Sequence record: OZ077758.1
Source: a phage
DNA length: 44,664 nt
Strand: one strand, 5' to 3'
Part shown: positions 1,949 through 40,288 of the stretch, in pieces
How the letters are laid out: every line of letters starts with the position of its first letter
Numbering within the stretch: position 1 is the stretch's first letter
Notes under the pieces: model-generated
What the model was told of the DNA's origin: nothing
The model's input: only the letters and a program-made list of their open reading frames with translations
Database searches by the model: none
Program-made: the position numbers and the translations under genes

Positions 1949-3469
1949 ATGACCGTTAACGTTGACAACCAGCACCCACTATATGCGCGCATCGCGCCAG
2001 AGTGGAAGATGATCCGCGATTGTGTAGCAGGGGAGCGCGCAGTGAAGGCGTGCGGCCCCTTGTACCTGCCTCATCCCGCCAGTGGCGACAATACTGACCC
2101 GAAAGCACGGGCGCGGTATAAGGCGTACAAGCAACGCGCTGTATTCCTGAACGCCACCGCCCGCACACTTAACGCGCTGTTAGGCGTTGCCTTTGCTAAA
2201 CCGGTAAGTCTGGACCTTTCCGGGGCGATGGCTGACCTGATTGACGACGTAGACGGCAGCGGTATGCCTCTGCCGCAACTCCTGCGCGGTGCTATGTCGG
2301 AAGTGCTGCAATCAGGCCGTGCGGGCTTTATGGTGGACTACGACCGCCAGGCGCATTTTGATGAACTGGGTAACGTAGTACCGCAGACCGCCGCTGAAAT
2401 GGCAGCACACCGCCCGCTTATCCGCCTGTATACGGCTGAACAGATCATTAACTGGCGGCAGACCCACGGCGTCGACACGCTGATTGTGCTGAAGGAAACG
2501 GACGAAATCAGCACCGAAGACCCGGACGACTTCGCAAACCACGAGGTAACCATCTGGACCGAGCTTCGCATGATTGACGGCAAGGCACACGCCCGACGCT
2601 GGTTTTACAATGCGGACACGTCAGAAGTGCAAATGGACTTGCCGCGTGGATTTACCCGCACCGACCTTGTGCCGCTGGTGGATGCTGCCGGTAAAGCGCT
2701 GACACAGCTTCCGTTTTGCTGGTGTGGCGCGGTGGACAACAACGCAACGCCTGACGCCGCTCCGCTGGCGGATATCGCATCCATCAACATTAAGCACTAC
2801 AACGCCGAAGCGGACGTCGCCGAGATTGCGCACATCGTGGGTCAACCGACCCTGGTGGCGACGGGCTTGACTCAATCATGGGCGGACAAGAACCTGAAGG
2901 GCGGCATTGCCCTCGGCGCGACTAAGGGCGTTATCCTGGGCCAGAATATGGATGCTAAACTGATCCAGGCGGAGGAGCGCAACTTGTCGGTTGCACTGTG
3001 TGAGCGTCGCGAATTGCAAATGGCTAAACTGGGCGCGGCCCTGGTCGAGAAGGGGACCGCACCTAAGACGGCAACCGAGGCGGCATACGATGCGCAGACT
3101 GATAACAGTATCCTGTCGCTTATTGCCGGTAACGTTGAGAAGGCGTTCAACCGTGCGCTGCAAATCGTGCAGCTTTTCACTGGTGACACCGCCGACCAGC
3201 GTGTGACGCTGAACAAGTTCTACACCGAAATCACGGTTGACGCACAGCTTATGACCGCGATGATGGCAGGTGTGCAGACCGGTACGGTCCGTCTGGCGGA
3301 CTTTATCAAGTGGATGATGGCCCAGGGCGTTATTGATGACTCGCAAACCGTCGAGCAGGTGGAAGACGAACTGCGAAATCAGAATCCATTGCCTCAAATG
3401 TCCCCGGATGCGGTAGAATCGACCGAAGAAGCCCCGGACGAGGTAGTGGACAATGGCGAAGACAATTAA
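1949..3469 (+). CDS. portal protein
   Basis: 506 aa, directly after terL, acidic C-terminal tail; RBS AAGGAAAA before ATG at 1949. Confidence 0.8.
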   Translation: MTVNVDNQHPLYARIAPEWKMIRDCVAGERAVKACGPLYLPHPASGDNTDPKARARYKAYKQRAVFLNATARTLNALLGVAFAKPVSLDLSGAMADLIDDVDGSGMPLPQLLRGAMSEVLQSGRAGFMVDYDRQAHFDELGNVVPQTAAEMAAHRPLIRLYTAEQIINWRQTHGVDTLIVLKETDEISTEDPDDFANHEVTIWTELRMIDGKAHARRWFYNADTSEVQMDLPRGFTRTDLVPLVDAAGKALTQLPFCWCGAVDNNATPDAAPLADIASINIKHYNAEADVAEIAHIVGQPTLVATGLTQSWADKNLKGGIALGATKGVILGQNMDAKLIQAEERNLSVALCERRELQMAKLGAALVEKGTAPKTATEAAYDAQTDNSILSLIAGNVEKAFNRALQIVQLFTGDTADQRVTLNKFYTEITVDAQLMTAMMAGVQTGTVRLADFIKWMMAQGVIDDSQTVEQVEDELRNQNPLPQMSPDAVESTEEAPDEVVDNGEDN

Positions 3470-4556
3470 TCAATATATGGCGGATCGAATGATTCGCCGT
3501 CACATCTTCACCCAGCGCCTGAGTAATGACCAGGCGCGGAGGGTGTTGGCTATGTGGGAGAAGTTCCGGCCCACGTTACTGGGTAAGCTGACCGAGTTGC
3601 TTGATGGTAAAAAGTCCATGAGCAACAAGGCGCTTACCACCCTGTTAACGCAACTCGACAAGACCGTCAAAACGGAACTGCGCACCGAGTTTAAGGTGCT
3701 GGCTGAAAGCCTTCAGGAGTTCGCCGACACCGAGGCCGATTATCTCGCCGACACATTAACGGCAGCGATCCAGCCGGTGGTCGCCGTACCAGCGGTCGAG
3801 GTGGTTGGCGTAGTGACCGGTGCGCAGATCGCAGCGACGGCAATGAAAAACCCGTTCCAGGGTAATACGATGATGCAATGGCCTGACTCACTTTCTGAGT
3901 GGACCAGGACGCAGATCGGCAATCAGGTGCGCGCCGGATTCATCCAGGGCAAGCCAACGATGGAAATTATCGCGGACGTGAGGCGCGCGCTAGGCGGTCG
4001 TAGTGCGCAAGCCATCTCAAGCGTTGTTAAGTCCGCAGTCAACCACTATGCGGCGACCGCCCGCGAACTAATGGTAAAAGCAAATGACGATATTCTCGAA
4101 GGTCGCCAATGGTTATCTACATTGGACACGCATACTTCTCCCATGTGCCAGCTACGCGATCGCCTGTTTTATCCGGTTGATGTTACTCCCGATACGAAAG
4201 GGAAGCGAGGCGGAAAAGTGGTGGCGGGATCACAATATGGCGCTGGTCCGGGCAAGCTACATTATTGCTGCCGCTCGACGGAGACGTGGAAAGTCAAAGG
4301 TATGGAAGATTGGCCCAGTGGTAAGCGTCCGGCACTGAAGGCCGACGCAGGCAGATTGCTGAGTGAGCAGGTCGACGCGCAGACGGATTTCTTCTCATGG
4401 GTGCAGCGCCAGCCGCGCCATATCCTGGAGGAATTATATGGAGTGCAACGCGCCGACCAGATTATGCGCGGCGTGAAAGTGCCGAAGATGTTCACCGATT
4501 CCGGCGAACTAATGACTATCGCGCAGCTTAAAAACCGGGGGTTATGGCGTGATTAA
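3453..4556 (+). CDS. head morphogenesis protein (Mu F-like / SPP1 gp7-like)
   Basis: 367 aa, overlaps portal stop, position portal-F-scaffold-capsid typical of SPP1-like head modules. Confidence 0.6.
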   Translation: MAKTINQYMADRMIRRHIFTQRLSNDQARRVLAMWEKFRPTLLGKLTELLDGKKSMSNKALTTLLTQLDKTVKTELRTEFKVLAESLQEFADTEADYLADTLTAAIQPVVAVPAVEVVGVVTGAQIAATAMKNPFQGNTMMQWPDSLSEWTRTQIGNQVRAGFIQGKPTMEIIADVRRALGGRSAQAISSVVKSAVNHYAATARELMVKANDDILEGRQWLSTLDTHTSPMCQLRDRLFYPVDVTPDTKGKRGGKVVAGSQYGAGPGKLHYCCRSTETWKVKGMEDWPSGKRPALKADAGRLLSEQVDAQTDFFSWVQRQPRHILEELYGVQRADQIMRGVKVPKMFTDSGELMTIAQLKNRGLWRD

Positions 4557-4878
4557 ATATGCAGCTATTGGACTGGTTATCGGTCTGGCGGTAGGATTCT
4601 GGCTAGGTGACTCCTATCGTGCTGGCGTAGTGGCGGAGGCGGCGCAAGAAGCGCAAGCCCAAGCCCAACGGCAGCAAACTAAAGTTGTCGAGCGCTCCGT
4701 GCAGGCCGAACAAGCCCGCGACGTAGAATACCGGACTATCACGAAAGAGGTTGTTAAATATGTTACGCGCCCTAACCGCCCTGATTGTAGTTTTGATGCT
4801 GAGCGCGTGCGGATCAAGCAACGCGCCGTTGATGCCGCTAACGGAGTCGGCACTGCGACCGCCGTGCAAGTTCGATAG
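4549..4878 (+). CDS. i-spanin (Rz-like)
   Basis: GTG start; N-terminal transmembrane helix (AAIGLVIGLAVGFWLG) followed by charged Q/A/E-rich periplasmic region; o-spanin ORF embedded in +1 frame. Confidence 0.6.
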   Translation: MIKYAAIGLVIGLAVGFWLGDSYRAGVVAEAAQEAQAQAQRQQTKVVERSVQAEQARDVEYRTITKEVVKYVTRPNRPDCSFDAERVRIKQRAVDAANGVGTATAVQVR

Positions 4879-4990
4879 CCCGTCCGCAGACCCCGACGAG
4901 GATTTGATGATTGACGTGAAAAATATGGAATGCGGGGCGAAGCTAAGGGCGCAGGTGCTGGAGTTGCAGCAAATAATTAAGGGGCCGTAA
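4760..4990 (+). CDS. o-spanin (Rz1-like lipoprotein)
   Basis: ATG at 4760 with RBS AAGAGG; signal peptide ending in lipobox LSAC; Pro-rich; overlaps and extends past the i-spanin gene. Confidence 0.6.
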   Translation: MLRALTALIVVLMLSACGSSNAPLMPLTESALRPPCKFDSPSADPDEDLMIDVKNMECGAKLRAQVLELQQIIKGP

Positions 4991-5003
4991 TGGCCCCCTT
5001 TTC
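4981..5003. terminator. bidirectional rho-independent terminator between convergent genes
   Basis: hairpin GGGGCCGTAATGGCCCC followed by CTTTT on + strand and T-rich tract on - strand; lies between Rz1 stop and stop of minus-strand gene at 5005. Confidence 0.6.
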
Positions 5004-5004
5004 G

Positions 5005-5769
5005 TTAGCGCGGAATACCGCAAATCTCGTTGAGAGTTTTCACATCCAGCGCCACCGCCGTGGATTTTGGCTTGTCCGGGTAAGGGATGAATTGCTCAAC
5101 TTCAGGCCATGCCTTAATCAGCTTCTTGTCAGTATTGTGCAGGTCCAGCACACCGGTAACGGTCAACTTGAACGCGTCATACTTAGCCCGCAATTCGCGG
5201 CGGGCATGATCGTTACGGTCCAGGCGCTTACAGAAGTCATGATCCGCAGGGTAGTCTATACGACCGCGTGGCTTATAGATCGGCAGCGATTTTCCGTCCT
5301 CGTCCACTTCACACACCGAAGCCAGCATAACTTCCTCGAACCCCGGTACGATATCGCCGAGATCGGGAGATAGCTTATTCATGTATTTATATTCCCAGTA
5401 TCCGCGATGTACGCGGTATTGGTGACCGTCACCGCTCAAGGACAAGGTGCGAACGTTTCCGCCTGCATTTATTTCGAAAGTGGCGTCGTAAACGCTGCCG
5501 ATGCCTTTCGGGCGGTCGGTGTTATAACTATACGTCGCCTTGTTGGTGTATACACAGACGCCGTACATCTGCGACGGGTCATCGCCGATTGCTTCAATGC
5601 GCGCGAGTAGCTCGGCGAACGTGCGAATGCCTTCTGGCATACAGTCCAGCGTAATGGCGTACGCCAGGTCGCGCGAGTCCATCATTATTGATTTTGCTTC
5701 TGTCGCGATTTCGTGGTCGCGCAGGATGTTAGCCAGAATCTGATTTTTAATGTCTTTAGTCAGTCTCAT
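5005..5769 (-). CDS. hypothetical protein, counter-oriented moron in capsid module
   Basis: 254 aa from ATG at 5769..5767 (MRLTKDIK...), RBS GAGGA; the longer track ORF to 6216 overlaps the scaffold gene and promoter and is rejected; no recognisable catalytic motif. Confidence 0.7.
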   Translation of the reverse strand: MRLTKDIKNQILANILRDHEIATEAKSIMMDSRDLAYAITLDCMPEGIRTFAELLARIEAIGDDPSQMYGVCVYTNKATYSYNTDRPKGIGSVYDATFEINAGGNVRTLSLSGDGHQYRVHRGYWEYKYMNKLSPDLGDIVPGFEEVMLASVCEVDEDGKSLPIYKPRGRIDYPADHDFCKRLDRNDHARRELRAKYDAFKLTVTGVLDLHNTDKKLIKAWPEVEQFIPYPDKPKSTAVALDVKTLNEICGIPR

Positions 5770-5798
5770 TTTTGTGTCCTCGTTGTTGGTGTGCAACC

Positions 5799-5827
5799 AA
5801 TATATGCAACCAATACGAGGATTGCAA
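5799..5827 (-). promoter_or_regulatory. sigma70-like promoter for the minus-strand moron
   Basis: minus strand reads TTGCAA - 17 bp (TCCTCGTATTGGTTGCA) - TATATT about 30 nt upstream of ATG; two direct copies of GCAACCAAT at 5793..5801 and 5806..5814. Confidence 0.45.
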
Positions 5828-5917
5828 GTGAATTTTGCGATTATTTTTATCGCTGATAATATTAGAAGCGTGAAGTCGAGCGGGTGGCCCGCTCTGCCAC
5901 AATCCCAGGGGGATAGC

Positions 5918-6619
5918 ATGAAACTTACTAAAGCAGAATATGACGCGTTGCCGGAAGGTATGAAGGCGCTTTTTGTTGCCGATGGCGACGGGTATAAATC
6001 AACGTTCATGACCGCAGAAGAAGTACAGGCGGAAATTAAGGGTCTGAAAGACAACAACGCGAAGCTGGTGAGCGAGAAGAAAGCAGAAGCCGAACGCCGC
6101 GCCGAAGCTGAGCGCCTTGCGAAAGAGAAAGAGGAAGCCGCCGCGCGCAAAAATGGCGACCTCGAAGCGATCGACAAGTCCTGGAAAGATAAGTTTGCGA
6201 AACACGAAGCAGACACATCGGGAAAAATCGAAGCCTACCGCAAGCAGATCCACGACCTAACCATCGGCAGCGCTGCCAAAGACCTGGCATCGAAGCTATT
6301 CGGTAAGAATGCGGGCATCATGCAACGCCACGTAATGGACCGTCTGACGCTGGAAGACGGCGAAGACGGCAGCTTGAAAGTGCGTGTCTTGCAGGATGGC
6401 AAACCGTCCGCGCTGACTATGGAAGAGCTGGAAAAAGAGTTCCGTAATAACGCCGATTTTGCATCCGTCCTGGCTGGCACGCCAGCCGGTGGCGCGCCTA
6501 GCAAACCGACGCAGGTTGTCGAAGATGTGAAGTCTAAAATTACGATGGGCCATAGCTTCGGTATCACCGATCTCACCAAACAGGCCGGGGATATCATCGC
6601 TAAAATGGGCGACGAGTAA
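5918..6619 (+). CDS. scaffolding protein
   Basis: 233 aa from ATG 5918 (RBS AGGGGGA); highly charged coiled-coil-like (AEAERRAEAERLAKEKEEAAARK); immediately upstream of major capsid gene. Confidence 0.65.
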   Translation: MKLTKAEYDALPEGMKALFVADGDGYKSTFMTAEEVQAEIKGLKDNNAKLVSEKKAEAERRAEAERLAKEKEEAAARKNGDLEAIDKSWKDKFAKHEADTSGKIEAYRKQIHDLTIGSAAKDLASKLFGKNAGIMQRHVMDRLTLEDGEDGSLKVRVLQDGKPSALTMEELEKEFRNNADFASVLAGTPAGGAPSKPTQVVEDVKSKITMGHSFGITDLTKQAGDIIAKMGDE

Positions 6620-6716
6620 GCAGATTGCCCGCGAAAGCGGGCAATTTTGCGAGCGCGTAAAACTAAGGTAACATTAATGCCACTGGGCGAATGCTCACAA
6701 CTCAAAGGATTTCGAT

Positions 6717-7817
6717 ATGTCTTTAACAGTGTTCCAGCGTAAACTCGTTACCGCGGTTACGCAAATGATCCCCGACAACCTGAACGTTTTCAACGCCGCC
6801 GCCAATGGCGCTGTTGTTCTCGGTACTGGTGAAGTGCTGAAGGACGTTATTGAGAAAATGTCCGTAGGCTTGATCGCCAACCTCGTTACCGACCGTAACG
6901 CCTACGCCCCTGTCGGCACTCCGGCAACCGCGAAAGTGCTGGCGCGTATGCTGACCAACTCGGTTAACCTTTCCGCAAAAGTGGGTCCGGTAGCAATCAC
7001 TAAGGCTATGATGGCTAAGATCGAAACCAACGTTAACAGCGTTGCGGCTGAGATTGCGGCACAGGCTACTCAAGCGATTATGCTGCACTACCTGAAAGCT
7101 GGTATCGGCGCAAGTAAAGCGGCGATCGAAAGCAACGTAGCGGCAAAATACACCCAACCGGCGCGCGTTGACGGCGTTGGCGGTCGTACCTTCCCGACCC
7201 TGGCAGACTTCCCGCTGGCGGCTTCTAAGTTCGGCGATCAGGCGTCTTTGATTAAGTCCTGGTTTATGGACGGGGTTACCTGGGCAAACTTCATCGCATA
7301 CCAGGCGCTCCCTTCCGCTGAACAGGTATTCGCAATTGGCGATCTCCAGGTAATGGGCGATGGCCTGGGCCGTCGCTTCATTATCTCCGATGCCGCTGCC
7401 GATGCTATGGGCGCTGGTAACATGCTGGGTCTGGTCCCTGGCGCGGTTGCAGTTACCACCAACGGCCTCGATATGCTGGCGCAGGAGAAAGGCGGTAACG
7501 AGAACATCGAGCGCTGGTGGCAGGGCGAGTTCGACTTCAACGTAGCGGTTAAAGGCTATCGTCTGAAGGCGTCCGCTCGTACCCCGATCGAAGGCGTCCG
7601 CTCGTTCAAGCTGGACGATATCACCACTTCCGCTAACTGGGAACTGGACCAGGGCCAGGTAGACAACGCACCGGCAACCGTGCAGGACGTTGGCGCTGTG
7701 GGTGATGGCGATACTAAAGGCCGTCGTAAGACCCAGGCAGCACAGGCAGTGCCTACCCGTCACATCAAGGAAACCGCTGGCGTACTGGTTACGCTGACGG
7801 CGACCACAGCGTCCTGA
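6717..7817 (+). CDS. major capsid protein
   Basis: 366 aa after scaffold, RBS AAAGGA, followed by strong terminator; size and position typical of an HK97-fold capsid protein. Confidence 0.7.
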   Translation: MSLTVFQRKLVTAVTQMIPDNLNVFNAAANGAVVLGTGEVLKDVIEKMSVGLIANLVTDRNAYAPVGTPATAKVLARMLTNSVNLSAKVGPVAITKAMMAKIETNVNSVAAEIAAQATQAIMLHYLKAGIGASKAAIESNVAAKYTQPARVDGVGGRTFPTLADFPLAASKFGDQASLIKSWFMDGVTWANFIAYQALPSAEQVFAIGDLQVMGDGLGRRFIISDAAADAMGAGNMLGLVPGAVAVTTNGLDMLAQEKGGNENIERWWQGEFDFNVAVKGYRLKASARTPIEGVRSFKLDDITTSANWELDQGQVDNAPATVQDVGAVGDGDTKGRRKTQAAQAVPTRHIKETAGVLVTLTATTAS

Positions 7818-20633: not shown

Positions 20634-20936
20634 ATGGCATTCGGTATCGCAACGTGGGACGCGCAAGGACGCCCAAACAACTACGGCATTAAACCGGTAA
20701 GCGTGGTCGGAAGGATTCATCTTGCGGAAGGACAAAAATCAGGCGCATGGTCATTCCCTGTACCGGCGGGGATGAAGGTCGGATACGTGGTCGCACTGGA
20801 TAAAGGCGCGGTCGGGCCAGGCCGCAGAATAACCGCCAGCGGGAACACTATCACGGTATCCGCGGCAAGTGCGGTAGGTGGCGGGGTTTACTCCGCATCT
20901 GAATGTGACGTTATTGTTTTTGTGGAGCGAGCATAA
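20634..20936 (+). CDS. hypothetical protein (tail-tip region)
   Basis: 100-aa ORF directly after gpJ terminator; coupled (ATAATG) to next ORF. Confidence 0.5.
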   Translation: MAFGIATWDAQGRPNNYGIKPVSVVGRIHLAEGQKSGAWSFPVPAGMKVGYVVALDKGAVGPGRRITASGNTITVSAASAVGGGVYSASECDVIVFVERA

Positions 20937-21610
20937 TGGCTAATTACGGCGCGTTGATTGACTTACCAAACGGCAACCCGTTTATCACACCAGAATCGAC
21001 GCCGTTTTGTCTATTCCGCCGTGTGGTTGTTGGGTCTTCGGCTAACGGCACTGCGCAGTCGGCGGCTGCCGATATTAATTTGGGTGGTGACTACCCTGCA
21101 ATAGCGTTTGTGAAAACTACGCACACCGCCCAGCCGACCGTCGTAGGGTCTTCTCGCGTTGGTAATGTGGTGAAGGTGAGCGCCAGCAATCCATTCGGGC
21201 AAGGCTTCACGATGACGGCTTACATCTTTGCCATATTCCCACAGACCCTTCCGCGGTGGGGCTTCGCTATTTGGGATAAGACGGGGAAGCTAGTGCTTAC
21301 TAATGAGAGTCGCGTACTAAGTGATTTAGTTACCGTCGGATCGCCAGGCGCTAACGGGGGGATTAACATTGACCAGACGCTAAACGGCAGCTACGCCGTC
21401 GCTCCGGGCATATTGGGGTCTACGCTGATCCGGTTTTTTGTGCAGGGCCAGCCGCAAGTAATATCGGTGACGGCGTACACGGGGGCCAGATTTGATGGGT
21501 CGCGAACGCGTATATCAGCAGCGTCGTCGGGGAACGCCACAGGGGATGTGGTAGGGTATACTAACAACGGCAACGCGATTATGGCGATTAACACCGCCAA
21601 TTATGATTGA
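20936..21610 (+). CDS. hypothetical protein, possible receptor-binding or tail-associated protein
   Basis: 224 aa, Gly/Ser/Thr-rich; position between gpJ and the exclusion-like lipoprotein. Confidence 0.5.
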   Translation: MANYGALIDLPNGNPFITPESTPFCLFRRVVVGSSANGTAQSAAADINLGGDYPAIAFVKTTHTAQPTVVGSSRVGNVVKVSASNPFGQGFTMTAYIFAIFPQTLPRWGFAIWDKTGKLVLTNESRVLSDLVTVGSPGANGGINIDQTLNGSYAVAPGILGSTLIRFFVQGQPQVISVTAYTGARFDGSRTRISAASSGNATGDVVGYTNNGNAIMAINTANYD

Positions 21611-21848: not shown

Positions 21849-21927
21849 GTTATCATCTCCTATATTTGGTTGAGTTTTAGTATTACACCTCTCAACCAGG
21901 ATTGCAACCAATTATGAGGATTCAGCT

Positions 21928-25047: not shown

Positions 25048-25069
25048 TGCAACCAACCTATTGGTTGCA
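25048..25069. promoter_or_regulatory. perfect palindromic operator TGCAACCAA-N4-TTGGTTGCA
   Basis: inverted repeat of the TTGGTTGCA motif, overlapping the 3' end of the HAD gene and upstream of gene 24486..24995; adjacent TTGCAAGTGAATTTTGC 17-mer also found at 5822..5838. Confidence 0.55.
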
Positions 25070-25749: not shown

Positions 25750-26215
25750 GTAGCTCACTCTCGCTCATTATTTCAATTTGTGCGCTGCCGATGGGCGGCG
25801 CTTCGTCAAAGATTATCAACTGCTGGCACTTGTTATTGCTAGGCCCGACTTCGCCGGTGACGGCGTGTATAAATCTAATCCGCCAGTCCAGAAGAATTAT
25901 CAGGTTTGCAGTCTTCCTGGCCAGCTTCGCCCACTTCGTCGACGTGTCCTGATTCAGTAGCATGACCGTCCGGCGTCCGTGCGCTGCGCACTCTACCCAC
26001 GGCAGTGGATCGGAGTACGGCGGATTGCACCACTTCCACCCTTTCAACTCGGACCAGTCCACATCAAGCGCGCTGTGTTCTGCAGTGAAGTAACGCGGTA
26101 GCAGGTGGTTTGCATCGCTTGCCGCCATATCGTAACGGAATCGGTACTTCCGGCGCAGCGGTTTAAATAAAGCTGGCGGCGTGCGCCAGCTATCTTTTTG
26201 CTCACTCTTCTGCAT
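25730..26215 (-). CDS. DNA N6-adenine methyltransferase (phage Dam-like)
   Basis: 161 aa; catalytic NPPY motif (WCNPPYS) and N-terminal WRTPP..LF region typical of small phage Dam methyltransferases. Confidence 0.7.
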   Translation of the reverse strand: MQKSEQKDSWRTPPALFKPLRRKYRFRYDMAASDANHLLPRYFTAEHSALDVDWSELKGWKWCNPPYSDPLPWVECAAHGRRTVMLLNQDTSTKWAKLARKTANLIILLDWRIRFIHAVTGEVGPSNNKCQQLIIFDEAPPIGSAQIEIMSESELHEYLNR

Positions 26216-26660
26216 GGTCGGTGTCTATCGCATAAAGTGGAACCTTGCCTCCTTTACCAATGACGCGTTGCATGCGCTTTAAATCCTCGACACTAAGCGC
26301 TTTCGGGGAGATGCTGCCGTTTGTAGGGTTGCGCCACGCCATAAGCACAAGGTCTTTCCGGGCGATCGAAGACTGGCGGCCCTTCGGACGCACGTACTCC
26401 TCCGCACGTTTGCAATGCTCGCGCAGACCTTCGGCAGTGATGCGGTTTAGCGCGACGGTGGTGGTGTATCCGGTGCGCTGCATAATACCCATCAACTCAT
26501 ACAGCAGGTCGAAGCGCTCCTCTAATTCCTTGCGCGCCTTCTCCTCGCCTTCATAGCTCGCCAGGTAGGTGTCCGCCAGCGCGTTCGCGCGTTCGGCCTG
26601 TTCGCGGGCTTCGAGGCATTGCGCGGCCCAGTAATTTTTTTCTTCTTGTAAAATTTTCAT
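26202..26660 (-). CDS. hypothetical protein (coiled-coil)
   Basis: 152 aa, charged helical N-terminal half. Confidence 0.5.
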   Translation of the reverse strand: MKILQEEKNYWAAQCLEAREQAERANALADTYLASYEGEEKARKELEERFDLLYELMGIMQRTGYTTTVALNRITAEGLREHCKRAEEYVRPKGRQSSIARKDLVLMAWRNPTNGSISPKALSVEDLKRMQRVIGKGGKVPLYAIDTDHAEE

Positions 26661-26950: not shown

Positions 26951-26979
26951 AATATAATGCAACCAATATGGTTATGCAA
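26951..26979 (-). promoter_or_regulatory. sigma70-like promoter
   Basis: minus strand TTGCAT - 17 bp - TATATT; two direct ATTGGTTGCAT copies (one supplies the -35, one abuts the -10). Confidence 0.5.
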
Positions 26980-26984
26980 CCAAT

Positions 26985-35850: not shown

Positions 35851-36363
35851 TTAATCTTCCAGTTCGAAATAGGTTTCGACGATTTCTTTTAGCTCTGTGT
35901 GGAAGTCTTCGACGTCGTCATCTTCCAGCTTGGCGATTGATTTGATCTCGAACGATTCCAGCAGGTCGTCGAATTCGTCGTTCGCATCGTCGTCATCGCC
36001 ACCGGCGATAATAGCGGCATACTGTTTGATTTCGTCGCGCATCTCCGCCAGCGGATCGGCATCTTTCTTACCTTTGCCTTTCGCCGGTGCTTTCTTAGCC
36101 TTAGCCGGTTTTTCGTCTTCGGCGTCTTCGTCGTCGTCATCTTCTACGACTTCTTTTTTGGCCTTACCTTTCGCCGGTGCTTTTTTAGTTTTCGCCGGTG
36201 CTTCGTCTTCGGCGTCGTCATCTTCTACGACTTCTTTTTTGGCCTTAGACGGCTTCTTGTCTTCCTGCTTACCAACGGCAGCGCCAACGGTTTCATAATG
36301 TTTAGCGATGGTTTCCAGTGCTACTACGCCGCGAGTGATCAGGTTTACGATTTGCTCAAACAT
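35851..36363 (-). CDS. acidic repeat protein, first gene of leftward early operon
   Basis: 170 aa from ATG 36363 (RBS GGAGA); two tandem ~23-aa repeats (KKEVVEDDD.EDE.PAK.KKAPAKGK) from a ~69-bp nucleotide repeat; poly-Asp C-terminal half. Confidence 0.6.
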   Translation of the reverse strand: MFEQIVNLITRGVVALETIAKHYETVGAAVGKQEDKKPSKAKKEVVEDDDAEDEAPAKTKKAPAKGKAKKEVVEDDDDEDAEDEKPAKAKKAPAKGKGKKDADPLAEMRDEIKQYAAIIAGGDDDDANDEFDDLLESFEIKSIAKLEDDDVEDFHTELKEIVETYFELED

Positions 36364-36559
36364 GGTACATCTCCGATTGGTTAAGTTTAGGTGTCGGCAG
36401 TTAACTTCGTCGGTGGCCTTAACATATTGCCAGGTTACGCGTTCTCCCGTTCGGGTAGTGGACCTGGTTATATAATCACGGTTGGGAATCCTGACACTTC
36501 GATCCGGCCCCTGCGTTGCCCCTCTCCAGTTTGCGTCCTGCATCCTGTCGACGGAGTGA

Positions 36560-36766: not shown

Positions 36767-37096
36767 ATGAATGTAAACGACGCAATCGAAATGTTAACGA
36801 AGACTGTTTGCAGTGAGACAAGCCGGTCATGGGCATACACCGATGCCGTGGGGGCTGTGTTATTTGAAATCGAACGACTGCGGCTTACCGAAAAAGAATT
36901 GCGCGCCAGGCTGGAACTACTCAACGGTACAGCAGCAAGCAAGCTGCAAAAACACAATGAAGAAATGGAAGAATACAAAAAGCAGGTTATCCGTTTGCGC
37001 GCCGAGGGTAAATCATGGGCGATGATTGCCGAGTTGACCGGAATTAATCAGAGCACAGTGCGCTCCTGGGTACGCAATAATAAAACTTCTAAGTAA
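36767..37096 (+). CDS. helix-turn-helix DNA-binding protein (putative regulator)
   Basis: 109 aa; C-terminal HTH-like KSWAMIAELTGINQSTVRSWVRNN; first gene of rightward early operon. Confidence 0.6.
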   Translation: MNVNDAIEMLTKTVCSETSRSWAYTDAVGAVLFEIERLRLTEKELRARLELLNGTAASKLQKHNEEMEEYKKQVIRLRAEGKSWAMIAELTGINQSTVRSWVRNNKTSK

Positions 37097-39772: not shown

Positions 39773-39925
39773 TCCGGGGATTGCAAAATACACGGCAGCA
39801 TGATGCGAAGTGCGGTCGTAGGTGAACTAGGCAACCAATGCGAGTTGCATTATGCGAAGTGAAAAATGCAGTTTGCAGTCACAGCGGATAGCGATCAACT
39901 TTTTCATGCGCGTGATTAATATTGG

Positions 39926-39954
39926 TTGCACCCCGCCTGGCACCCTGCTATATT
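39926..39954 (+). promoter_or_regulatory. sigma70-like promoter
   Basis: TTGCAC - 17 bp - TATATT, built from two ATTGGTTGCAC copies; leader GGTTGCACACCAACATGAGGA also found at the moron promoter. Confidence 0.5.
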
Positions 39955-39982
39955 GGTTGCACACCAACATGAGGACTGAACG

Positions 39983-40288
39983 ATGAAAGCGATTATCTGG
40001 AATTACGCATTAGCCGTGGCAAAGCTGTACGAAGCGAAACACACAAACGGCAACGCAGACGAAGCGCGCGAGGTCGTCATCCTGACCCAGCAGGCAATCA
40101 TGGACGCGTTCGACGATATGTTTGCCAGCCTGGACGAACTGGAACCGCTGCGTGTGGCAATCTGCGAATATGCGATGGCATTTGCCCGTGAGCGCCTGGC
40201 GTATCGTTTCGGGATCGGCGATAAGGCAGTGACAAACGTCGCCCGGATTAAAGCCCAGCGCGAACTATTCGCGCAGCTTGCGAAATAA
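39983..40288 (+). CDS. hypothetical protein
   Basis: 101-aa ORF with RBS GAGGA. Confidence 0.55.
   Translation: MKAIIWNYALAVAKLYEAKHTNGNADEAREVVILTQQAIMDAFDDMFASLDELEPLRVAICEYAMAFARERLAYRFGIGDKAVTNVARIKAQRELFAQLAK

Follow-up and report, generated by a model that had tools for sequence, protein, structure and literature searches.

A separately promoted nmad5 gene set backwards in the head-gene block of a Dhillonvirus genome

Introduction

The phage genome deposited as OZ077758.1, whose 44,664 nucleotides are here called the window, carries in the midst of its rightward structural genes one gene that runs in the opposite direction and encodes a protein of 254 amino acids (aa). A reading made from the sequence alone had taken this gene for a moron with its own promoter and terminator, probably expressed independently of the late genes, and had placed it among the defence, anti-defence, exclusion or host-takeover factors. 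The gene, nmad5, is already named and has been studied in the literature, so it does not represent a discovery. It encodes a full-length member of the Nmad5 family and lies in what appears to be a cassette made of a constant promoter, an exchangeable cargo and a hairpin terminator. The points that remain of interest are an apparently unfounded functional label, a fold without match and a natural insertion slot.

The nmad5 locus

About 135 Dhillonvirus genomes match the 2.2 kb around the locus at 93-97% identity, all of them from siphophages of E. coli and Shigella with genomes of ~44.6 kb; Shigella phage StarDew comes closest (96.7%). The window keeps the gene order of StarDew: packaging, head and tail genes come first and run rightward, the replication genes after them run leftward, and a last rightward block comprises primase, small genes and lysis genes. 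The elements of the nmad5 unit are the following:

5005..5769, minus strand: nmad5 coding sequence (CDS), 254 aa plus stop, ATG at 5769; Pfam PF18757 Nmad5, phrog_1965
5122..5124, minus strand: codon of K216, the Tmn-escape site (see below), present as lysine in the window protein
5777..5781, minus strand: Shine-Dalgarno sequence GAGGA, 7 nt ahead of the nmad5 ATG, read from the sequence
5799..5827, minus strand: sigma-70-type promoter from a promoter scan, TTGCAA (5827..5822), 17 nt, TATATT (5804..5799)
5805..5813 and 5792..5800, minus strand: two direct copies of the motif TTGGTTGCA, the first in the promoter spacer, the second overlapping the -10 and the predicted transcript start
4979..4999: GC-rich hairpin, a plausible bidirectional intrinsic terminator, between the convergent stops of the o-spanin gene (4990) and nmad5 (5005)
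5770..5917: divergent intergenic region between nmad5 and the scaffold gene, 148 bp; in relatives, cargo is inserted here between the promoter and the nmad5 ATG

The sequence-only reading had drawn the locus accurately: the gene extends on the minus strand from the ATG at 5769 to the stop at 5005, no other minus-strand gene is credible within 1..23.8 kb of the window, and it is placed between a spanin pair and the scaffold gene. The neighbours, as assigned by PHROG, are these:

3453..4556: head morphogenesis protein
4549..4878: i-spanin (Rz-like)
4760..4990: o-spanin (Rz-like)
5918..6619, plus strand: head scaffolding protein, ATG at 5918
6717..7817: major head protein

As a mechanical open reading frame, the frame of nmad5 extends further upstream to an ATG at 6009 (334 aa) and a GTG at 6216. 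This stretch (5770..6216, minus strand), antisense to the start of the scaffold gene, is stop-free for 149 codons ahead of the nmad5 ATG, which accounts for the inflated annotations of 334 aa in phage SM_S22 and 269 aa in StarDew. The 334-aa start was rejected, and the 254-aa start is favoured on five lines of evidence: residues 1-253 span the PF18757 model from its first to its last position, the N-terminal MRLT is kept family-wide, a GAGGA Shine-Dalgarno sequence stands at 5781..5777, the promoter would fall within the 334-aa extension, and relatives have unrelated genes immediately upstream of the position equivalent to ATG 5769. The two starts are separated by 240 nt (6009 - 5769), or 80 codons, so that K296 in the SM_S22 numbering corresponds to K216 in the window.

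Family identity and sequence evolution

In the sequence-only reading no motif could be assigned to the protein, a statement overturned by profile searches. The window protein is a full-length member of PF18757, Nmad5 or 'Nucleotide modification associated domain 5' (E 1.7e-57, 195.2 bits against a cut-off of 27), with residues 1-253 covering model positions 1-206 of 206, and it also matches phrog_1965, a group of 'unknown function' (E 4.3e-61). The original description of the family is reportedly that of Iyer et al. from 2013, and some GenBank records of this gene already carry the Nmad5 label. The protein gave zero matches in NCBIfam and in PADLOC, a library that covers defence but not anti-defence proteins. 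An exhaustive profile search gathered 834 clusters (50% identity) at E <=0.001, and most of the best 150 of these 834 are stand-alone proteins of ~170-250 aa. The family signature, whose conservation was measured on 159 members, is complete in the window protein and comprises the N-terminal R-L-T, G104, T213-x3-L217-x3-W221-P222-E223, L246-N247 and G251-x-P253.

Over the 254-aa core the window protein is 93% identical to Nmad5 of SM_S22, with 18 differing residues that fall mostly in the variable middle and only one differing position in the last 74 residues. nmad5 is a real coding gene under purifying selection within Dhillonvirus, its ratio of nonsynonymous to synonymous substitution rates (dN/dS) being 0.11 across 18 alleles, 0.03 for residues 171-254 and 0.34 for a variable patch at 45-70. 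At the same time, in most of the loci compared it is the locally most diverged segment, with a nucleotide identity of 84-90% against ~90-99% for its flanks within 3453..7817. Because this excess is mostly synonymous (median dS 0.5), the pattern seems to reflect the reshuffling of old alleles through recombination more than any relaxation of constraint. The composition of the gene (GC 52.3%, and 62.4% at third codon positions) is typical of the genome, and nearly all Dhillonviruses carry it. As to a possible identity with Ksap1, the Dhillonvirus protein sensed by KpAvs2, it was discarded: Ksap1 has 74 aa and is encoded elsewhere.

A conserved promoter with a recurrent motif

By itself, the promoter in front of nmad5 (a 9/12 match to consensus) is not above chance, as 2 such matches were found where 2.8 are expected. 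Its reality is judged instead from its conservation, which is the decisive support. In a comparison of 20 related loci, 19 keep a TTGCA[AT]-N17/18-TATATT element with two copies of TTGGTTGCA. The element persists in a relative with a diverged spacer and an Nmad5 of no more than 65% identity, and also in Sodalis phage SO-1, which has another gene behind it. The copy proximal to the -10 is kept in all 20. Locus L022 is the exception, with this proximal copy alone and no promoter-like match in the scan; in locus L023 the hexamers are kept and one copy of the motif has diverged. Where genes have been inserted, the element has kept its place at the head of the whole cassette, at -220, -405, -503 or -639 from the nmad5 ATG.

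The motif recurs in the window, with 12 copies against 0.34 expected, a count that was reached in none of 100 shuffles. Apart from the two at nmad5, the other ten lie in the early region, within 21.9-43.2 kb, where they head transcription units, as a rule 30-70 nt ahead of the leading gene, and they are often paired at promoter-like sites:

TTGGTTGCA sites: 21903, 25048-25069, 26958-26983, 36568, 39922-39961, 40485 and 43197, besides those at 5792-5813

The sequence-only reading, which had seen here a TTGCAA-17-TATATT promoter with a motif common to the early promoters, is borne out by the scan, by the conservation of the promoter and by the motif count. Judging from this distribution, the two copies at nmad5 are probable regulator-binding sites common to early promoters, and the whole set looks like the operators of a phage-encoded regulator. 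A candidate for this regulator is a 109-aa helix-turn-helix (HTH) or sigma-70 region-4-like protein encoded at 36767..37096. Moreover, the ATATTGGTTGCACACCAACA..GAGGA stretch upstream of nmad5 recurs almost verbatim upstream of the gene at 39983. Some of the sites also show symmetry: a perfect inverted pair, TGCAACCAA-ccta-TTGGTTGCA, is found at 25048-25069, and the copies at 5792 and 39953 form part of a TTGGT-N5-ACCAA inverted repeat.

At the other end of the gene, the hairpin GGGGCC-GTAAT-GGCCCC (4981..4997) folds on both strands, with -13.4 kcal/mol on the plus strand (z -1.6) and -15.6 kcal/mol on the minus strand (z -2.85). Terminator-type hairpins occur in the region near the chance rate (5 found, 4.0 expected in the scan), and it is the position of this one between convergent stops, not the hairpin count, that supports its reading as a terminator; the bidirectional terminator proposed earlier is accordingly plausible. 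With this terminator upstream of them, expression of the scaffold and capsid genes requires either read-through or a separate promoter, and the promoter scan found no plus-strand consensus promoter for them. A hairpin, GAGCGGG-TGG-CCCGCTC, was observed in the scaffold leader at 5878..5894 (plus strand), ~25 nt before the ATG at 5918, and its core is also present in JLBYU60.

Exchangeable cargo behind the promoter

The space between promoter and nmad5 ATG is empty in the window, StarDew, SM_S22, KS_S9 and Pandora71. Other relatives accommodate here an extra gene, of 53 aa in EK99P-1, of 109-122 aa (phrog_24635) in JLBYU60 and others, and of 135 aa in Zar3M and others, and in locus L021 the insert reaches ~600 bp. 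The positions of the extra cargo within the respective related loci are:

L011: 1511-1879
L015: 1112-1519
L016: 1083-1244
L014: 992-1510
L021: upstream of 6001

nmad5 itself may be exchanged as well. In SO-1 it is replaced by a 172-aa phrog_3007 protein of the PHROG category DNA metabolism, noted by its depositors as a 'possible moron', and in JLBYU27, where it is also replaced, homology ends at the nmad5 start codon. Compared in this way, the loci keep the promoter constant and exchange the cargo, and the site is, as far as sequence comparison goes, a cargo-exchange hotspot. The moron proposed by the sequence-only reading stood in one part: at the level of sequence, nmad5 has its own promoter and its own terminator, separate from the surrounding operon, and forms an autonomous promoter-gene-terminator unit. 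A patchy unit of foreign composition is less well matched: the cargo varies among relatives, but nmad5 itself occurs in nearly all Dhillonviruses and has the base composition of the genome.

A second variable accessory slot was noticed at 20634..21610 (plus strand), between the tail tip and tail fibre genes, with a copy of TTGGTTGCA adjoining it at 21903. It holds in the window two plus-strand genes, a phrog_557 'outer membrane protein' and a phrog_425 'membrane associated protein, moron', and in StarDew two unrelated minus-strand genes, one of them for a lipoprotein.

Predicted structure of Nmad5

AlphaFold models were obtained for the window protein (predicted local distance difference test, pLDDT, 75.8; predicted template modelling score, pTM, 0.73) and for a 232-aa homologue of the same architecture (pLDDT 83.4). 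The model has N-terminal helices at ~5-42 and 51-61 and a long helix towards the C-terminus at 178-209; between them is a beta-rich middle, of low prediction quality in the window protein, and the family signature is borne by short C-terminal helices. A sequence search of the family profile against all chains of the PDB gave nothing below E 0.7, a Foldseek search of BFVD returned other Nmad5 members only, and no recognisable enzyme fold emerged from the fold searches. Structural, protease or scaffold homology, which the sequence-only reading had named as its own refuter, appeared in none of the Pfam, PHROG, PDB sequence or fold searches.

Published phenotypes and residue 216

The nmad5 genes of the Dhillonvirus phages SM_S22 and SM_A8 were studied by Yamashita et al. 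(2025, Commun Biol 8:290; PMC11846954), and the phenotypes that follow refer to those alleles, of which the window allele is a 93% identical orthologue. Mutants that escape Tmn, a KAP-NTPase defence, carry the substitution K216E (K296E in SM_S22 numbering), which arose independently in the two phages; reverting it alone restored sensitivity to Tmn, and introducing it alone conferred resistance (PMC11846954). A phage with wild-type Nmad5 remains blocked, so that only K216E escapes, and deletion of nmad5 from SM_S22, made in an anti-Tmn deletion background, left the phage viable and still Tmn-sensitive (PMC11846954). Cloning of the gene failed, apparently through toxicity, and nmad5 has served in the engineering of therapeutic-type phages (PMC11846954). 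The authors call Nmad5 'a DNA modification enzyme', for which they cite only the 2013 computational paper that named the family (PMC11846954). In the literature searched we found no other functional work on Nmad5, and nothing relevant on Dhillonvirus transcriptomes or on other Tmn triggers.

K216 is present in the window protein and invariant in 18/18 Dhillonvirus alleles. Across the 159 family members the position is K in 91, Q in 30, R in 21 and A in 9 (K/Q/R ~90%), and D or E in none. In the AlphaFold model it lies within a helix of pLDDT >90, beside the invariant L217 and W221. As the residue is never acidic in the family, K216E amounts to a charge reversal on the most conserved surface of Nmad5.

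Genomic contexts of Nmad5 homologues

In siphophage contigs of ~40-49 kb (L003, L004 and L006), an HTH regulator is divergent from a phrog_3127 gene, which is followed by Nmad5, two small genes, a DUF2800 PD-(D/E)XK nuclease, an Enc34-type SSB, PolA and an SNF2 helicase. The window contains the same replication module (minus strand, from 36543 down to ~28000), led by the phrog_3127 gene at 35851..36543 and with no Nmad5 in the slot, which means that Dhillonvirus nmad5 lies outside the module that holds it in related phages. The 230-aa protein encoded at 35851..36543 was considered as a cryptic Nmad5 paralogue and rejected, phrog_3127 being the gene that precedes Nmad5 in those phages. Elsewhere, Nmad5 stands just after PolA, or between a PD-(D/E)XK nuclease and genes of RecT-like and SbcC-like (ATPase) type.

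Temperate lambdoid phages (Kapi1, PhiR12 and 59 records of Shiga toxin (Stx)-converting phages) have Nmad5 in the early-left (PL) operon, between the immunity region (N in PhiR12) and cIII-kil-RecT/Bet. In lambda and P22 this region is well known for its accessory genes, ral and sieB among them. In the 59 Stx-converting records the Nmad5-like coding sequence has 32% identity over its C-terminal 98 residues, and among the records listed, those of H109-H112 (Stx1a-/Stx2a-converting) have no feature annotated beneath the match, at ~10-11 kb of each record.

Base-modification genes accompany Nmad5 in a single one of the contexts examined, that of M6-like loci of high GC, where it directly follows a 5-hydroxymethyldeoxyuridine (5-hmdU) DNA kinase and is near a pyridoxal-phosphate (PLP) enzyme. 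The family owes its name to such an association with modification cassettes. In the window the neighbours are spanins and a scaffold gene, and the annotation of the 96.7%-identical StarDew contains no hydroxymethylase, HMUDK or aGPT-Pplase. On the evidence of these neighbourhoods, what is common to Nmad5 homologues is early expression beside replication and recombination functions, not base modification.

Proposed function and alternatives

The nmad5 cassette can be described as a sigma-70-type promoter with early-type TTGGTTGCA elements, a cargo and a hairpin terminator, set backwards in the late head-gene block. Since the promoter shares its motif with the early promoters and the gene is embedded backwards, transcription of nmad5 most likely belongs to the early programme and does not depend on that of the late genes, and would be governed by whatever factor recognises TTGGTTGCA. 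The protein in this phage would be a non-catalytic binding protein and not a DNA-modifying enzyme. Its long N- and C-terminal helices may pack together around the variable beta-rich insert, and its conserved surface would be composed of the C-terminal T-x3-L-x3-W-P-E ... L-N-x3-G-[LI]-P region and the N-terminal R-L-T. It would act early, upon a conserved partner placed where phage DNA metabolism meets host functions or defences, in the service of host takeover or anti-defence. K216E probably redirects or frees the protein in such a way that it blocks Tmn or the trigger of Tmn; a change-of-function allele is the simplest way to reconcile that this substitution escapes Tmn and the deletion does not. 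Altogether, we assign a probability of about 0.5 to this composite reading, in which Nmad5 is an accessory binding protein, expressed early and working between the DNA metabolism of the phage and the defences of the host. Nmad5 does not belong to the structural proteins, and any enzymatic role would be conjectural. The functional class put forward by the sequence-only reading (defence, anti-defence or takeover) fares well in that the orthologue is dispensable, toxic when cloned and able to escape Tmn through a point mutation, and less well in that only K216E escapes, while the wild type and the deletion do not.

Several points weigh against this interpretation. The early timing of nmad5 is taken from promoter similarity alone, and the binding partner is only postulated. 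A family so broad and conserved is atypical of anti-defence proteins, which as a rule evolve fast and are narrowly distributed. A fold without match is compatible with catalysis, the conserved R2, T4, N14, T213, E223 and N247 could form an active site, and the M6-like Nmad5 directly follows the 5-hmdU DNA kinase in a thymidine-hypermodification cassette. Wild-type Nmad5 gives no protection against Tmn (PMC11846954). In favour of the interpretation, type I and II restriction systems reportedly meet less resistance in Dhillonviruses than in the 7-deazaguanine-modified Queuovirinae (PMC8594841); this argues against a protective hypermodification, but as indirect evidence only.

Among the alternatives, the one that survives best makes Nmad5 an accessory subunit of the phage PolA-type replication and recombination machinery, for instance an adaptor linking polymerase, DUF2800 nuclease and SSB, that takes no direct part in defence; the effect of K216E on Tmn would be only indirect, by way of altered replication intermediates. 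The near-universal linkage of the family to PolA, DUF2800 or PD-(D/E)XK nuclease, SSB or RecT genes speaks for such a subunit, as do the deep family-wide conservation of both termini, which suggests a conserved partner, and the presence of another gene of the DNA-metabolism category in the slot of SO-1. However, the lambdoid phages that carry Nmad5 lack PolA and replicate by means of the host replisome, toxicity to uninfected cells is unexpected for a purely phage-directed factor, nmad5 is dispensable, and in Dhillonviruses it is separated from the replication module. We consider this alternative possible, though unlikely.

That Nmad5 is a DNA base-modification enzyme or its obligatory cofactor, with Tmn sensing or depending on modified DNA, appears quite improbable. 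Beyond the origin of the family name, it can be argued from the M6/SN1-like phages, where Nmad5 stands beside genes for the 5-hmdU DNA kinase, the PLP enzyme and aGPT-Pplase, from the conserved polar residues mentioned above, and from the adenine and cytosine methyltransferases that the phage encodes elsewhere. Against it, no hydroxymethylase, kinase or transferase is found nearby in the window or in most of the contexts examined, no enzyme fold was detected, and lambdoid phages, for which hypermodified DNA is not known, have Nmad5 in the PL operon. The comparative sensitivity of Dhillonviruses to type I/II restriction (PMC8594841) points the same way, and the unchanged Tmn sensitivity of the nmad5 deletion is hard to fit with a Tmn that senses an Nmad5-made base. 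From context and fold, the label of DNA modification looks unfounded.

Wild-type Nmad5 might otherwise be the component sensed by Tmn, with K216E abolishing recognition. Mutation of the sensed protein is the commonest escape route from abortive-infection systems, and the same substitution arose independently in two phages; the deletion is nevertheless fully Tmn-sensitive, which means that Nmad5 is not the sole or necessary trigger and leaves this reading largely refuted and very hard to maintain. A head structural or assembly protein, such as an inverted prohead protease or a decoration protein, has in its favour only the position between the head morphogenesis and scaffold genes and can be practically dismissed, given that the Pfam, PHROG, PDB sequence and fold searches gave no protease or structural family, homologues sit in early operons of other phages, the promoter is of early type, and nmad5 is dispensable and replaced by an unrelated gene in SO-1.

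Returning to the binding protein, a more general proposal can be made with considerable reserve, as one that we would hold at clearly less than even odds. Nmad5 would be a misnomer for widespread early phage proteins (834 clusters) of an unseen fold that carry out no DNA modification and bind a conserved host component of DNA metabolism or immunity; surface changes such as K216E would retarget them against Tmn-like defences, and Dhillonviruses would keep them in a promoter-equipped slot for exchangeable cargo. Should the DNA-modification label prove wrong, the idea of Tmn as a sensor of modified DNA would have to be given up, and Nmad5 could be regarded as a candidate early host-interface protein of wide distribution. 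On the practical side, the conserved promoter with exchangeable cargo constitutes a natural, tolerated site of payload insertion for Dhillonvirus engineering.

Comparison with known systems

The closest known case is nmad5 of SM_S22, which is the same gene at the same coordinates (CDS0006, 5005..6009), with K216 present and an identical promoter sequence. The difference resides in the annotated product, of 334 aa in SM_S22, with a start 80 codons upstream of the 254-aa start of the window. Nmad5 of M6/SN1-like Pseudomonas phages belongs to the same family and has in common the C-terminal T-x3-L-x3-WPE ... LN..G[LI]P signature; theirs directly follows a 5-hmdU DNA kinase near a PLP enzyme and PolA, whereas the window gene is alone in the head module. 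The lambdoid Nmad5 of the PL operon (Kapi1_018, PhiR12 and Stx-converting phages) is 31% identical over the C-terminal 100 residues (E 9e-13) and resembles the window gene in its probable early expression and its neighbourhood of accessory genes. In contrast, its hosts are temperate phages, its length is ~207-227 aa, and it is co-transcribed from PL, whereas the window gene has a private promoter.

Classical morons, such as bor and lom of lambda and those of HK97 type, are also autonomous promoter-gene-terminator units amid late genes, dispensable and with a cargo that varies among relatives. Unlike them, nmad5 is not foreign in composition and is conserved under purifying selection across almost the whole genus, and the phage of the window is virulent, so that there is no lysogen in which it could be expressed.

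A last comparison concerns anti-Tmn (ORF35) of SM_S22. The window encodes at 26202..26660 (minus strand) a 152-aa protein 88% identical to CDS0035 of SM_S22, and CDS0035 is probably the 'ORF35' of Yamashita et al., which fits their description of a helical rod with a small beta domain; the PHROG label of 'DNA ligase' for its family looks like a mis-annotation. Among anti-Tmn homologues, small sequence differences decide whether they work (PMC11846954). Like Nmad5, anti-Tmn is an accessory protein of Dhillonvirus that genetically decides the outcome of Tmn, and a mainly helical rod with a beta element is predicted for both. On the other hand, their sequences are unrelated, anti-Tmn inhibits Tmn as wild type and Nmad5 would do so only as K216E, and anti-Tmn is restricted to Dhillonvirus, whereas Nmad5 constitutes a broad family.

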